From sequence record NC_007825.1: 5,538 bases of DNA; one strand, written 5' to 3'. The stretch comes from Escherichia phage ID52. Positions 4-4,514 of this stretch are shown here, in pieces (positions within the stretch are counted from its first letter, which is position 1; the number at the start of each line of letters is the position of its first letter). The notes under the pieces are model-generated. The model saw only the letters and a program-made list of their open reading frames with translations. It was not told the origin of the DNA and did no database searches. The position numbers and the translations under genes are program-made.

Positions 4-33
4 TTGACTAATACTCAATCACCACTCTAATAT
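4..33 (+). promoter_or_regulatory. Candidate sigma70 promoter upstream of gene A (pA-like)
   Basis: TTGACT at 4-9 and TAATAT at 28-33 separated by 18 nt, in the H-A spacer just upstream of A. Position matches the known pA location in phiX174-type phages. Sequence-only prediction. Confidence 0.45.
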
Positions 34-58
34 GCCTCCCATCAAACGGAGGCTTTTC
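34..58 (+). terminator. GC-rich hairpin plus T-run in H-A spacer (TH-like terminator/attenuator); stem includes the gene A Shine-Dalgarno
   Basis: GCCTCC (34-39) pairs perfectly with GGAGGC (48-53) around an 8-nt loop (40-47), followed by TTTT (54-57) and then the A start codon at 59. The 3' arm contains the GGAGG that serves as the A ribosome-binding site. Confidence 0.4.
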
Positions 59-1723
59 ATGTTTAAAACTCATTCTGACTACTTCAATAAACCAAACATC
101 GACGCAATCAAACCACTCGTCGAAACTGCTGGTATGTCTGTTCTTACTCAGTCTCCAAACCTCCGTATCTGGAAACAGTGCAATACTCGTATCAAACTTC
201 TTGAAGAAATCCTTGCTCATTATACGAATGGTATTCGCCGTGATGATAATGGTGACTTCTGGATGAATCCAAACTCTCAACTCGCAACCACTATTGCCTA
301 TCGTGCCCACCAAAAAGGCCACAATCCTAAATTCAAACAATACCCAGAGTCGTTTACTCTGGATGACATTATTACTGGCAAACCAATCCCTCAAACCGCC
401 CCTGACGAATTACAACTCTCCGATGAAATCGGTGAAGACTACCGTCTTACAGTCCTCTCCATAATCGAAGAACTGCAAGAATGTTACGATGTGCTCGGAC
501 AACTTGATATTAATAACACTATAGACCACAAACCCCTTGGTAATACTCACTGGGACTTACTCTATGAAAAACCCGTATACAAACATTGGACTCAACTCGT
601 TTCAAAACGACCCCTTAAAGATATCCGCGCCGATTACAACTATGCAAAGGCGAAGGGTATTAAGGATGAATGCTCAAAAATCTTGGAGGAATCTACTATG
701 AAGTCCCGTCGTGGATTTACCGTCCAAAGATTGATGAATGCTATGCGTACAGCCCATACTCAGGGCTGGTATGTGGTATTCGACACTCTTACCCTAGCCG
801 ATGACCGCTTAAAGGATTTCTATGATAATCCCAATGCTCTTCGTGACTACTTCCGTGGTATTGGTCGTATGGTTCTTACTGCCGAGGGTCGCTCGGTGCA
901 TGAGTCATCTGCCGACTGCTATCAGTATTTTTGTGTGCCAGAGTATGGTACACAGCACGGTCGTCTACATTTCCACGCAGTGCATCTTATGCGCACACTT
1001 CCTTTGGGTTCTCTGGACCCTAACTTCGGTAAGTTGGTACGCACTAATCGGCAAATAAATAGCTTGCAAAACACGTGGCCTTATGGTTACTCTATGCCCA
1101 TCGCAGTCCGGTACTCCCAAGATGCTTTCTCTCGTGCTGGCTGGCTCTGGCCTGTGGATGCAAAGGGTGAACCCCTTAAAGCTACCTCGTATATGGCTGT
1201 AGGCTTCTACGTTGCTAAATACGTTAATAAAAAATCAGATATTGACATGGCCGCAAAAGGCCTAGGGAATAAAGAATGGAACAATTCGCTCAAAACCAAA
1301 ATCAACCTCATACCCAAGAAGGTGTTCAGAATCCGAATGTCCCGCAACTTCGGAATGAAGCTACTCTCAATGGCTCACCTGTCAGCGGAAACTCTGATGG
1401 AACTGACCCAAGTGGGCTACGACGTGACCCCGTTCAACAACATCTTGAAGCAGAACGCCAAGAAAGAGCTCAAATCGAGGCTGGCAAAGAAATCTGTCGC
1501 AGACGTTTTGGAGGCGCAACCTGTGACGACCAATCTGCTAAAATTCATGCGCAATTTGACCCGAACAATCGGAGTGTCCAGCCTACAGAGTTTTATCGCT
1601 TCAATGACCACGAAATTATCAAGTACGGATATTTCTGATGAAACCAAAACTTACGTTGCTGATGCAGGAATTGCTGTTGCTAACTTACGAATTAAATCGA
1701 AGTGGACTGCTGGTGGAAAATGA
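59..1723 (+). CDS. A: Replication initiation protein A (HUH rolling-circle endonuclease)
   Basis: ORF 32..1723; preferred start is ATG 59, preceded by GGAGG (48-52) at 6-nt spacing, giving 554 aa. Strong recalled similarity to phiX174/G4 protein A along the whole length, including HFH (nt 968-976) and [10 protein letters not shown] with catalytic tyrosines (codons 1208-1210 and 1220-1222). Contains the origin sequence at 500-529. Confidence 0.92.
500..529 (+). other. Viral (+) strand rolling-circle origin; protein A nick site between G506 and A507
   Basis: Exact match to the conserved 30-nt Microviridae origin as I recall it, CAACTTGATATTAATAACACTATAGACCAC, located inside gene A and encoding ...[10 protein letters not shown]... 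Confidence 0.88.
698..1723 (+). CDS. A*: Protein A* (in-frame internal restart within A, C-terminal 341 aa)
   Basis: In-frame ATG at 698 (STM-KSRRGF...) at the position homologous to the phiX174 A* start; predicted 341 aa, the same length as phiX174 A*. Whether it is expressed cannot be read from sequence. Confidence 0.65.
1276..1638 (+). CDS. B: Internal scaffolding protein B (overprinted inside A in a different frame)
   Basis: 120-aa [11 protein letters not shown]...[10 protein letters not shown]...[15 protein letters not shown], matching recalled phiX174/G4 protein B, including the [10 protein letters not shown] motif and aromatic C-terminus. Stop TGA 1636-1638 overlaps the K start. Confidence 0.9.
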
Positions 1724-1984: not shown

Positions 1985-2443
1985 ATGTCTAAATCAAATG
2001 AGTCTGCTGTAGCTTTTCAAACTGCTATTGCTTCTATCAAGCTTATCCAAGCCTCTTCCGTTCTCGACTTGACCGAAGATGACTTCGACTTTTTAACTCG
2101 CGACCGTGTATGGATTGCTACCGACCGCTCACGTGCTCGCCGTGCTATCGAGGCCTGTGTATATGGAACGCTGGACTTTGTCGGGTATCCTCGCTTTCCT
2201 GCTCCTGTTGAGTTTATTGCTGCCGTCATTGCTTATTATGTTCATCCCGTCAACATTCAGACGGCCTGTCTTATCATGGAAGGTGCAGAGTTTACCGAAA
2301 ACATCGTTAATGGTGTCGAACGCCCTGTTAAGGCCTCCGAATTGTTCGCCTTTACTCTTCTCGTTCGTGCCGGAAACAAAGACCTTATTGGTCATGCCGA
2401 AACAAACATCCGTGAACAATTACGCGCTCAAGGAGTTATGTAA
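1985..2443 (+). CDS. D: External scaffolding protein D
   Basis: ATG 1985 preceded by AAGGA (1973-1977); 152 aa: MSKSNESAVAFQTAIASIKLIQAS...VYGTLDFVGYPRFPAPVEFIAAVIAYYVHPVNIQTACLIMEGAEFTEN..., near-identical over long stretches to recalled phiX174 protein D (152 aa). Confidence 0.95.
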   Translation: MSKSNESAVAFQTAIASIKLIQASSVLDLTEDDFDFLTRDRVWIATDRSRARRAIEACVYGTLDFVGYPRFPAPVEFIAAVIAYYVHPVNIQTACLIMEGAEFTENIVNGVERPVKASELFAFTLLVRAGNKDLIGHAETNIREQLRAQGVM

Positions 2444-2474
2444 TGAAAAAATCAATTCGCCGCTCCGGCGGTAA
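2163..2474 (+). CDS. E: Lysis protein E (MraY-inhibiting single-gene lysis protein, overprinted in D)
   Basis: ATG 2163 in a frame different from D; N-terminus MERWTLSGILAFLLLLSLLLPSLLIMFIPSTF matches the conserved transmembrane domain of phiX174 E. The frame stays open to TAA 2472-2474 (103 aa), past the D stop and into J. Confidence 0.8.
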   Translation: MERWTLSGILAFLLLLSLLLPSLLIMFIPSTFRRPVLSWKVQSLPKTSLMVSNALLRPPNCSPLLFSFVPETKTLLVMPKQTSVNNYALKELCNEKINSPLRR

Positions 2475-2520
2475 ATCTAAAGGTGCTCGCCTCTGGTATG
2501 TAGGCGGAACGCAATACTAA
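2443..2520 (+). CDS. J: DNA-binding/packaging protein J (small basic protein)
   Basis: ATG 2443 overlapping the D stop (TAATG), preceded by AGGAG (2431-2435); 25 aa: MKKSIRRSGGKSKGARLWYVGGTQY, highly basic. Matches my recollection of G4 J (25 aa) rather than the 38-aa phiX174 J. Confidence 0.9.
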   Translation: MKKSIRRSGGKSKGARLWYVGGTQY

Positions 2521-2526
2521 TTTTTC

Positions 2527-2542
2527 GGGGGCTACGGCCCCC
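2527..2542 (+). terminator. GC-rich hairpin in J-F spacer (TJ-like terminator / mRNA-stabilising hairpin)
   Basis: GGGGGC (2527-2532) pairs perfectly with GCCCCC (2537-2542) around a 4-nt loop TACG. Sits between the J stop (2520) and the F ribosome-binding site AAGGA (2549-2553). No strong downstream T-run, so any terminator activity would be partial. Confidence 0.4.
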
Positions 2543-2560
2543 CAATTTAAGGATACAAAA

Positions 2561-3844
2561 ATGTCTAACGTTCAAACTTCTGCGGACCGCGTACCTCATG
2601 ACTTATCTCATCTCGTTTTTGAAGCTGGTAAAATCGGCCGCCTCAAAACTATCTCTTGGACACCTGTTGTTGCTGGTGACTCTTTCGAGTGTGATATGGT
2701 TGGTGCTATTCGTCTGTCCCCTCTTCGTCGCGGCCTCGCTGTTGACTCACGTGTTGATATCTTTTCTTTCTACATCCCACACCGTCATATCTATGGTCAG
2801 CAGTGGATTAACTTTATGAAGGATGGCATTAATGCCACCCCTCTCGCTCCTGTTACTTGCTCATCTGGCTGGGACTCTGCTGCGTATCTCGGTACTATTC
2901 CGTCCTCTACGCTCAAAGTGCCTAAATTCTTACATCAAGGCTATCTGAATATTTATAACAACTACTTTAAGCCGCCTTGGTCTGACGACTTAACTTATGC
3001 TAACCCGTCCAATATGCCTGAACAGGATTACAAATGGGGCGTGCGTGTCGCTAACCTTAAATCTATCTGGACCGCACCACTGCCACCGGATACCCGTACA
3101 TCTGAAAACATGACTACTGGTACATCCACTATTGACATTATGGGCCTACAGGCCGCATATGCTAAATTACACACGGAACAGGAACGTGATTATTTCATGA
3201 CCCGTTACCGTGACATTATGAAAGAGTTCGGCGGACACACCTCTTATGATGGTGATAATCGCCCTCTTCTGCTTATGCGCTCTGAGTTCTGGGCTTCTGG
3301 CTATGACGTAGACGGTACTGACCAATCCTCACTCGGTCAATTCTCTGGTCGTGTTCAGCAGACCTTCAATCATAAAGTGCCACGCTTCTATGTTCCTGAA
3401 CATGGCGTAATCATGACTTTGGCTGTTACTCGCTTCCCGCCTACTCATGAGATGGAAATGCACTATCTTGTAGGCAAGGAAAACTTAACCTATACCGATA
3501 TTGCTTGTGACCCTGCGTTGATGGCTAACCTGCCTCCTCGTGAAGTGTCCTTGAAGGAGTTCTTCCACTCCTCGCCTGATTCTGCTAAATTCAAAATCGC
3601 AGAAGGCCAATGGTATCGCACACAGCCTGACCGTGTTGCATTCCCTTATAACGCTCTGGACGGATTCCCGTTCTACTCTGCTCTCCCGTCCACGGAACTA
3701 AAAGACCGTGTACTGGTTAACACTGATAACTATGATGAAATCTTCCAGTCTATGCAGCTTGCACACTGGAACATGCAAACTAAATTTAACATTAATGTCT
3801 ACCGTCACATGCCTACGACTCGTGACTCAATCATGACCTCGTAA
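2561..3844 (+). CDS. F: Major capsid protein F
   Basis: 427-aa ORF, MSNVQTSADRVPHDLSHL...GRLKTISWTPVVAGDSFE...LRLSPLRRGLAVDSRVDIFSFYIPHRH..., strongly matching recalled phiX174/G4 F. AAGGA at 2549-2553, 7 nt upstream of the ATG. Confidence 0.97.
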   Translation: MSNVQTSADRVPHDLSHLVFEAGKIGRLKTISWTPVVAGDSFECDMVGAIRLSPLRRGLAVDSRVDIFSFYIPHRHIYGQQWINFMKDGINATPLAPVTCSSGWDSAAYLGTIPSSTLKVPKFLHQGYLNIYNNYFKPPWSDDLTYANPSNMPEQDYKWGVRVANLKSIWTAPLPPDTRTSENMTTGTSTIDIMGLQAAYAKLHTEQERDYFMTRYRDIMKEFGGHTSYDGDNRPLLLMRSEFWASGYDVDGTDQSSLGQFSGRVQQTFNHKVPRFYVPEHGVIMTLAVTRFPPTHEMEMHYLVGKENLTYTDIACDPALMANLPPREVSLKEFFHSSPDSAKFKIAEGQWYRTQPDRVAFPYNALDGFPFYSALPSTELKDRVLVNTDNYDEIFQSMQLAHWNMQTKFNINVYRHMPTTRDSIMTS

Positions 3845-3980
3845 GGCAACAAAGGCCGCCCCTCTACTGGTCAGATGCCTGCCCAATGTGGGGCGGACCG
3901 TGCCTACGGAGATACCCGAATCTACGATACATGGACGGCGTAGCCGCCGTCCCTACTGCAAAGCCAAAAAGGACTAACAT
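3845..3980 (+). other. F-G intergenic region with stable hairpins; candidate complementary (-) strand origin of the G4 type
   Basis: 136-nt non-coding spacer. Perfect 8-bp GC-rich hairpin GGACGGCG (3933-3940) / CGCCGTCC (3945-3952) with loop TAGC. Second stem CCGCCCC (3856-3862) / GGGGCGG (3890-3896) enclosing a 27-nt loop. Small hairpin CCGT/ACGG (3898-3909). In G4 the primase-dependent complementary-strand origin lies in the F-G spacer. Confidence 0.6.
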
Positions 3981-4514
3981 ATGTTCCAGAAATTCATTTC
4001 TAAGCACAATGCTCCAATTAGCTCTACTCAGGTTACTGTTACTAAAACTCCGGCTGCCACGGCACCTGTTTTAGATGTGCCTGGCTTAAGCCGTTCTACT
4101 ATTCAAATCAATGTAACAACCACAGCCGTTACAACTCATTCAGGCTTGTGCCACGTTGTTCGTATTGATGAAACAAACCCAACAAATCATCATGCTCTAT
4201 CTGTTGCAGGTTCATTGTCGCATGTCTCTGCTGATATGATTGCTTTTGCTATTCGCTTTGAAGTCGCCGACGGCGTTGTTCCTACTGCCGTTCCGGCTTT
4301 ATATGACGTTTATCCTATTGAAATTGTCAATACTGGCAAAGCAATCTCATTTAAAGACGTTGTGACTATTGACTCACATCCCCGCACTGTCGGTAACGAC
4401 GTTTATGCGGGTATTATGCTCTGGTCTAACGCTTGGTCTGCCACCACTACCTCTGGCGTTCTCTCTGTTAATCAGGTAAATCGTGAGGCTACTGTTCTCC
4501 AGCCTTTAAAATAA
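3981..4514 (+). CDS. G: Major spike protein G
   Basis: 177-aa [13 protein letters not shown]...[10 protein letters not shown]...[18 protein letters not shown]...SGVLSVNQV...LQPLK; conserved C-terminal blocks match recalled G4/phiX174 G. AAGGA at 3969-3973, 7 nt upstream of the ATG. Confidence 0.95.

Follow-up and report, generated by a model that had tools for sequence, protein, structure and literature searches.

A putative rolling-circle origin kept intact inside the initiator gene of a G4-like microvirus

The DNA analysed here (the window, 5538 bases) is the complete genome of a G4-like microvirus (Microviridae, Bullavirinae, Gequatrovirus). Aligned end to end, it is 98.6% identical to Shigella phage vB_1081 and 98.2% to coliphage NC6, and several hundred further records of the G4/ID11 group are about 93% identical to it. 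Following the annotation of G4 and NC6, the gene order is A, A*, B, K, C, D, E, J, F, G, H with every gene on the + strand, so the strand as given is the viral strand. Near its 3′ end, gene C of the window carries a 9-nt in-frame insertion (TGTCCGTAC, 1959-1967) relative to NC6 and vB_1081, the two closest relatives. The insertion accounts for the genome length of 5538 versus 5529 and gives a C-terminus of the gene C product that differs from the ...TDANHKGN of those two phages. The gene D stop overlaps the gene J start (TAATG, 2441-2445), as in NC6 and phiX174, whereas about 43 nt lie between D and J in G4. As a result of this overlap, the E frame (2163-2474) continues into J and is seven codons longer than that of G4. 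The features on which the analysis turns all lie in gene A:

59..1723, + strand: gene A, replication initiator (HUH endonuclease), matching Pfam Phage_GPA; A is placed at 59..1723 in G4, NC6 and vB_1081
500..529, + strand: putative viral-strand (+) origin of rolling-circle replication, CAACTTGATATTAATAACACTATAGACCAC; exact, unique and equal to phiX174 4299-4328
500..509, + strand: left conserved block CAACTTGATA, putative cleavage/recognition sequence, origin positions 1-10; predicted nick at G506/A507 by homology to phiX174 G4305/A4306
510..516, + strand: AT-rich spacer TTAATAA, origin positions 11-17; length fixed at 7 nt, sequence free
517..528, + strand: right conserved block CACTATAGACCA, putative A-protein binding ('key') sequence, origin positions 18-29; position 30 (base 529) is free
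698..1723, + strand: A*, from an internal in-frame start (ATG 698-700), annotated in G4 and NC6 at the same coordinates as here
968..976, + strand: HUH metal-binding motif, CAT TTC CAC = His313-Phe-His315 (from ATG32), equivalent to phiX174 His263/His265
1208..1222, + strand: paired catalytic tyrosines Tyr393 (1208-1210) and Tyr397 (1220-1222) in FYVAKYVNK, equivalent to phiX174 Tyr343/Tyr347

The longest open reading frame of gene A starts at ATG32, and relatives annotate ATG59. ATG59 is closely preceded by a hairpin resembling a terminator, with a T-run (34-53), and before that by a promoter-like site at 4-33 (TTGACT and TAATAT, 18 nt apart), so ATG32 is probably unused. The gene product matches Pfam family PF05840 (Phage_GPA) with E = 4.6e-60 and 203.8 bits against a cut-off of 31.4, and shares 99% identity with its vB_1081 counterpart and 96% with that of G4. 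Published work on phiX174 protein A assigns cleavage to G4305/A4306, with the protein becoming covalently joined through a 5′-phosphotyrosine, catalysis to Tyr343/Tyr347 and the HUH motif to His263/His265. The corresponding H313-F-H315 and Y393-VAK-Y397 (YxxxY) are invariant among the window, phiX174, alpha3 and the uncultured lineage L102, as are Glu304, Arg311 and Thr252/Thr254, the equivalents of phiX174 Glu254, Arg261 and Thr202/204. The original prediction had the origin lying inside the gene of its own nuclease; the host gene does encode a Phage_GPA HUH endonuclease, with the HUH histidines and both tyrosines conserved.

The 30-mer CAACTTGATATTAATAACACTATAGACCAC, which had been claimed to be intact at 500-529, is found there as a single exact copy on the + strand. 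A second site with three or fewer mismatches was found neither on either strand of the window nor in 200 shuffles, and extra copies of the left decamer with up to two mismatches number six against 5.8 expected by chance. The 30-mer is in frame in the ORF at 32..1723 (+), its first base being the first base of a codon, and encodes a ten-residue peptide (codons 157-166 counted from ATG32, or 148-157 from ATG59, in the same frame either way). The origin is thus embedded in the gene A coding sequence, as had been proposed, whichever start is used. The A* start (698) is 169 nt further downstream, and the peptide that the origin encodes is therefore present only in full-length A.

The same 30 of 30 bases occupy positions 4299-4328 of phiX174 (NC_001422). 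RefSeq annotates the phiX174 rep_origin ('origin of viral strand synthesis') at 4306, the eighth base of the 30-mer and the A that directly follows the nick. From this identity and annotation, the nick in the window would fall between base 506, a G, and base 507, an A, and the earlier placement at 506/507 is the correct homologue of phiX174 G4305/A4306. Judged by its sequence, the segment 500-529 is almost certainly the viral-strand (+) origin of rolling-circle replication of this G4-like microvirus. As such it is a textbook feature, described in 1979-1988 and annotated in RefSeq, and is already known. It also serves as a reliable landmark, confirming that the genome is G4-like, complete and correctly oriented, the strand given being the viral one.

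A search with the 30-mer alone against 50,697 phage records returned 573 that cover at least 80% of it, and best-place identity was at least 99% in 564, a number that includes a few short chance matches. The 30-mer is intact in several hundred records of the phiX174 and G4 groups. Among the full-length matches listed, phiX174, G4, ID11, the ID18/WA14 type, Lilleen, GR8 and PJNS002 are identical, and the alpha3 group (WA45, ID21) is 93.3% identical; the other matches are short and partial, in unrelated phages. Full-text literature searches did not find the 30-mer quoted.

To place the origin in the context of its gene, gene A was aligned codon by codon across 18 genomes from four clades (G4-like, phiX174, alpha3-like and L102). 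Across these clades the 30-mer is identical or has two differences, and the gene A flanks diverge at once on both sides of it, in a part of the gene that is otherwise poorly conserved. The best 30-column segment of the alignment starts at 500, with 28/30 invariant columns versus a mean of 7.6, and no invariant run in the gene is longer than 514-529 and 500-509. In an alignment-free comparison, the 30-mer is the second-longest exact run common to the window and phiX174 (A-protein identity 62-68%) and the longest common to the window and L102 (54%).

Among the 125 degenerate codons whose amino acid is invariant, all eight inside the origin are also invariant as codons, versus 12 of 117 (10%) elsewhere in gene A; the associated P of ~1e-8 treats codons as independent, which overstates the case because the sequences are related, and is indicative only. 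The right block contains the rare isoleucine codon ATA (6% of Ile codons in the genome), which is kept in every lineage. In a 2026 preprint, every nucleotide of phiX174 was mutated, and nine detrimental synonymous mutations at A codons Q107-D115 colocalised with ori(+), giving direct experimental support for a DNA-level constraint on exactly these codons. The origin explains the local lack of synonymous change in gene A.

The original prediction described this stretch as constrained both as protein code and as DNA recognition site. The DNA half of that statement is borne out by the synonymous invariance and by the phiX174 scan, but the balance between the two looks lopsided and the DNA seems to dictate the peptide. 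DNA function appears to be the dominant constraint, with the peptide dictated by the DNA site and not the reverse. The stronger idea, that the peptide is in essence carried along by the DNA site and itself contributes little to protein A, is one that we hold to be rather doubtful.

The longest exact run that the window has in common with other clades is 2189-2259 (71 nt with phiX174, 68 nt with alpha3, 65 nt with both). This run falls in the overlap of lysis gene E (2163..2474) with gene D (1985..2443) and spans the hydrophobic N-terminal part of E; its conservation looks like the product of a double coding constraint, stronger than that on the origin. Within gene J, which encodes a small DNA-binding protein, a 30-nt exact run (2478-2507) is common to the window and alpha3. 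The F-G intergenic region (3845-3980) folds as single-stranded DNA to -28.3 kcal/mol (z = -3.9, equalled by 0/200 shuffles), with a long hairpin at ~3854-3900 and a G+C-rich hairpin at 3933-3952. It is probably the G4-type primase-dependent complementary-strand origin, and Rfam has no family for it.

Natural variation was then followed into distant relatives, which were gathered from IMG/VR and GenBank phages by a protein-based search, so that three divergent lineages were unselected for the motif. In each of them, an ungapped mismatch scan picked out a single site clearly better than the rest, and it lay at the corresponding point of gene A. One lineage, L185, was added by a pattern-based scan. 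The origins read as follows, with A identity taken from blastp against the window:

Window, G4, WA14/ID18-like, phiX174 and L102 (A 100-52%): CAACTTGATA + TTAATAA + CACTATAGACCA + C
Pectobacterium phage Mimer (A 38%): CAACTTGATA + TTAATAA + CACTATAGACAA + G
alpha3 group (A 46%): CAACTTGATA + ATAGTAA + CACTATAGACCA + C
L180 (A 46-49%): CAACTTGATA + TATTAGG + CACTATAGACCA + A
L185 (A 35-38%): CGACTTGATA + TAAAATA + CACTATAGACCA + G
L181 and L182 (A 33-35%): CGACTTGATA + ATACATG + CACTATAGACCA + T

Alignment to the phiX174 and G4 origins, which had been suggested as a check, gives 30/30 identity to both, and substitutions among the relatives fall only at positions 2, 11-17, 28 and 30. All 11 lineages, the most distant at 33% A identity, agree at positions 1, 3-10, 18-27 and 29. 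Either A or G stands at position 2 and any of the four bases at position 30, and the sole change at position 28 is C28A in Pectobacterium phage Mimer. The five spacers (TTAATAA, ATAGTAA, TATTAGG, TAAAATA and ATACATG) are all 7 nt long with at least 5/7 A+T. The codon register is the same in 11/11 lineages, the first origin base being the first base of a gene A codon. Spacer substitutions replace the encoded residue by a dissimilar one (I to N; N to S, L, K or T; N to G, Y or C). The Leu, Asp, Thr, Ile and Asp codons on either side do not vary at their synonymous sites in any lineage. In Eel River pequenovirus (A 27.5% identical), no origin motif could be recognised at either fixed or variable spacing, so the motif was followed only to lineages with at least ~33% A identity.

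On sequence grounds, this pattern of variation matches the layout described for phiX174, in which a recognition sequence, an AT-rich spacer and a binding sequence follow one another. Work by van Mansfeld et al. in 1980, Brown et al. in 1983, Fluit, Baas and Jansz in 1984-85 and Goetz et al. in 1988 reportedly divided the phiX174 origin into a decamer for cleavage and recognition, a spacer rich in A+T and a 'key' sequence for binding, and found its last bases dispensable for cleavage. What our comparison adds is modest: variation in uncultured and non-coliphage relatives mirrors the two-block layout with a fixed 7-nt spacer earlier defined by mutagenesis. Changes at position 2 (A to G), at position 30 and in the spacer mark the origins of uncultured lineages, and these lineages may fall into separate classes of origin specificity, each co-evolved with its A protein. 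If so, they would offer a naturally occurring series in which to study the reading of a hairpin-free double-stranded site by an HUH initiator.

Several of the records call for comment in themselves. In L102/L177 (IMGVR_UViG_3300005306_000004), gene A changes frame between two tblastn segments near its 3′ end (~3168-3179), and in Pectobacterium phage Mimer (L192) gpA is annotated as two CDS (2389-4022); these apparent interruptions could be sequencing errors or real features. Two records attributed to phages of Actinobacteria, MZ417522.1 (Mycolicibacterium phage J1, 24,953 nt) and MT947439.1 (Protaetiibacter phage SSC1, 5386 nt), contain a phiX174-type gene A at phiX174-level identity, most likely as contamination from the phiX174 sequencing control.

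Scans for half-sites in IMG/VR gave mostly chance matches, 140 of 175 loci having more than eight mismatches to the full 30-mer. One locus, L047, has the first 18 nt in common with the 30-mer and encodes no microvirus A or F protein, and was discarded as chance. The bipartite pattern, run against metagenome and genome collections, gave one match per scan, and the two are the same Bacteroidales chromosomal locus (L187 8625-8654, - strand; L188 3307-3336, - strand). That site reads CGACTTGATA AACTCGC CACTATAGACCA A, with both blocks perfect at 7-nt spacing. It was rejected as an origin, as no microvirus genes lie nearby and about one chance match is expected for 20 specified bases in ~1e12 bases.

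Could the 30-mer be conserved for a reason other than its use as an origin? If the peptide were needed for the function of protein A, the DNA identity would be a by-product of purifying selection. Within the first ~190 residues of the protein, no long run other than these ten residues is invariant, and L, D, T, I and D are kept in 11/11 lineages. Selection on the peptide does not, however, account for zero synonymous change in 8/8 origin codons while 90% of comparable codons vary, and it leaves the retention of the rare ATA codon unexplained. Moreover, where the spacer does vary, the encoded residues change non-conservatively, and synonymous mutations at these codons are detrimental in phiX174. 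We regard this explanation as highly improbable. That the stretch is some other signal, whether a promoter, a structured element in RNA or DNA or a cue for the translation of A*, is less probable still. TTGATA and TATAGA hexamers are present and the stretch is AT-rich, but the hexamers are just 10 nt apart and no promoter-like site was found over 500-529. Nor does the fold of 470-560 improve on shuffles (z = -0.84), there is no Rfam match, and the A* start is 169 nt downstream.

The third explanation we give a comparably negligible chance, namely that a short patch spread recently among the phage clades by recombination or gene conversion and is under no long-term functional constraint. Horizontal transfer among microvirid coliphages was reportedly documented by Rokyta et al. 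in 2006, and the longer exact run at 2189-2259 is likewise common to several clades. Against this, the boundaries of the patch are equally sharp in every clade, and two invariant blocks around a variable 7-nt spacer persist even at 33-49% A identity. That a 30-nt patch was transferred again and again is implausible, and such transfer would leave the result of the phiX174 mutational scan unaccounted for. Use as the viral-strand origin remains by far the preferred reading of 500-529, and no result of the analysis spoke against it.

A mechanism for this origin can be outlined from phiX174 and G4, its steps being carried over to the window by sequence identity. Protein A would use the right-hand block (517-528) to bind the replicative form, a supercoiled double-stranded DNA, whereupon the 7-nt AT-rich spacer (510-516) would melt and the left-hand block (500-509) would become exposed as a single strand. 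Tyr393 or Tyr397 would then cut G506/A507 with Mg2+ held by the HUH histidines, leaving protein A attached to the 5′ phosphate of A507. The free 3′-OH of G506 would prime synthesis by the host polymerase, which follows the Rep helicase. Once a round is complete, the second tyrosine would cut the regenerated origin, the first linkage would be resolved and the displaced strand would be sealed into a circle. The spacer region is a local G+C minimum (25-30%), and the single-stranded fold of 470-560, no better than shuffles, contains no predicted hairpin; a G+C minimum with no hairpin is consistent with opening by melting. A phiX174-type origin placed on a plasmid is said, from work by Fluit, Baas and Jansz in 1985, to be sufficient in cis for rolling-circle replication and packaging.

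The locus is a classic case of a cis-acting replication signal inside the coding sequence of the enzyme that uses it, and any recoding or redesign of phiX174- or G4-type genomes must respect the 30-mer.

The closest parallel is ori(+) of phiX174, which agrees with the window in 30/30 bases, in strand, in frame and register within gene A, in its position upstream of A* and in being served by an HUH initiator with two tyrosines. The differences lie in the gene A flanks (A 62-68% identical) and in the N-terminal part, which is longer in the G4 group; the origin itself shows none. Within Gequatrovirus (G4, ID11, NC6, vB_1081), the origin has the same sequence at 500-529 in genomes of 93-98.6% identity, and the window stands apart from its nearest relatives by the 9-nt insertion in gene C. 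The alpha3/St-1 group (Alphatrevirus) has both conserved blocks, the 7-nt spacing and the frame in gene A, and differs in its spacer by T11A and A14G, both non-synonymous (I to N and N to S).

In other HUH replicons, namely the pT181/pC194 plasmids, the geminiviruses and circoviruses with their nonanucleotide and the Ff gpII origin, the nick site usually lies in a hairpin or cruciform loop in non-coding DNA. The origin described here, by contrast, has no predicted hairpin, lies inside the coding sequence of its initiator and, by analogy with its relatives, would be opened through an AT-rich spacer and supercoiling. A published review describes those replicons as sharing a + strand nick, a 5′-phosphotyrosine linkage and separate bind and nick sites. 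The same chemistry, with a bind site plus a nick site, would be expected to operate at the origin in the window.
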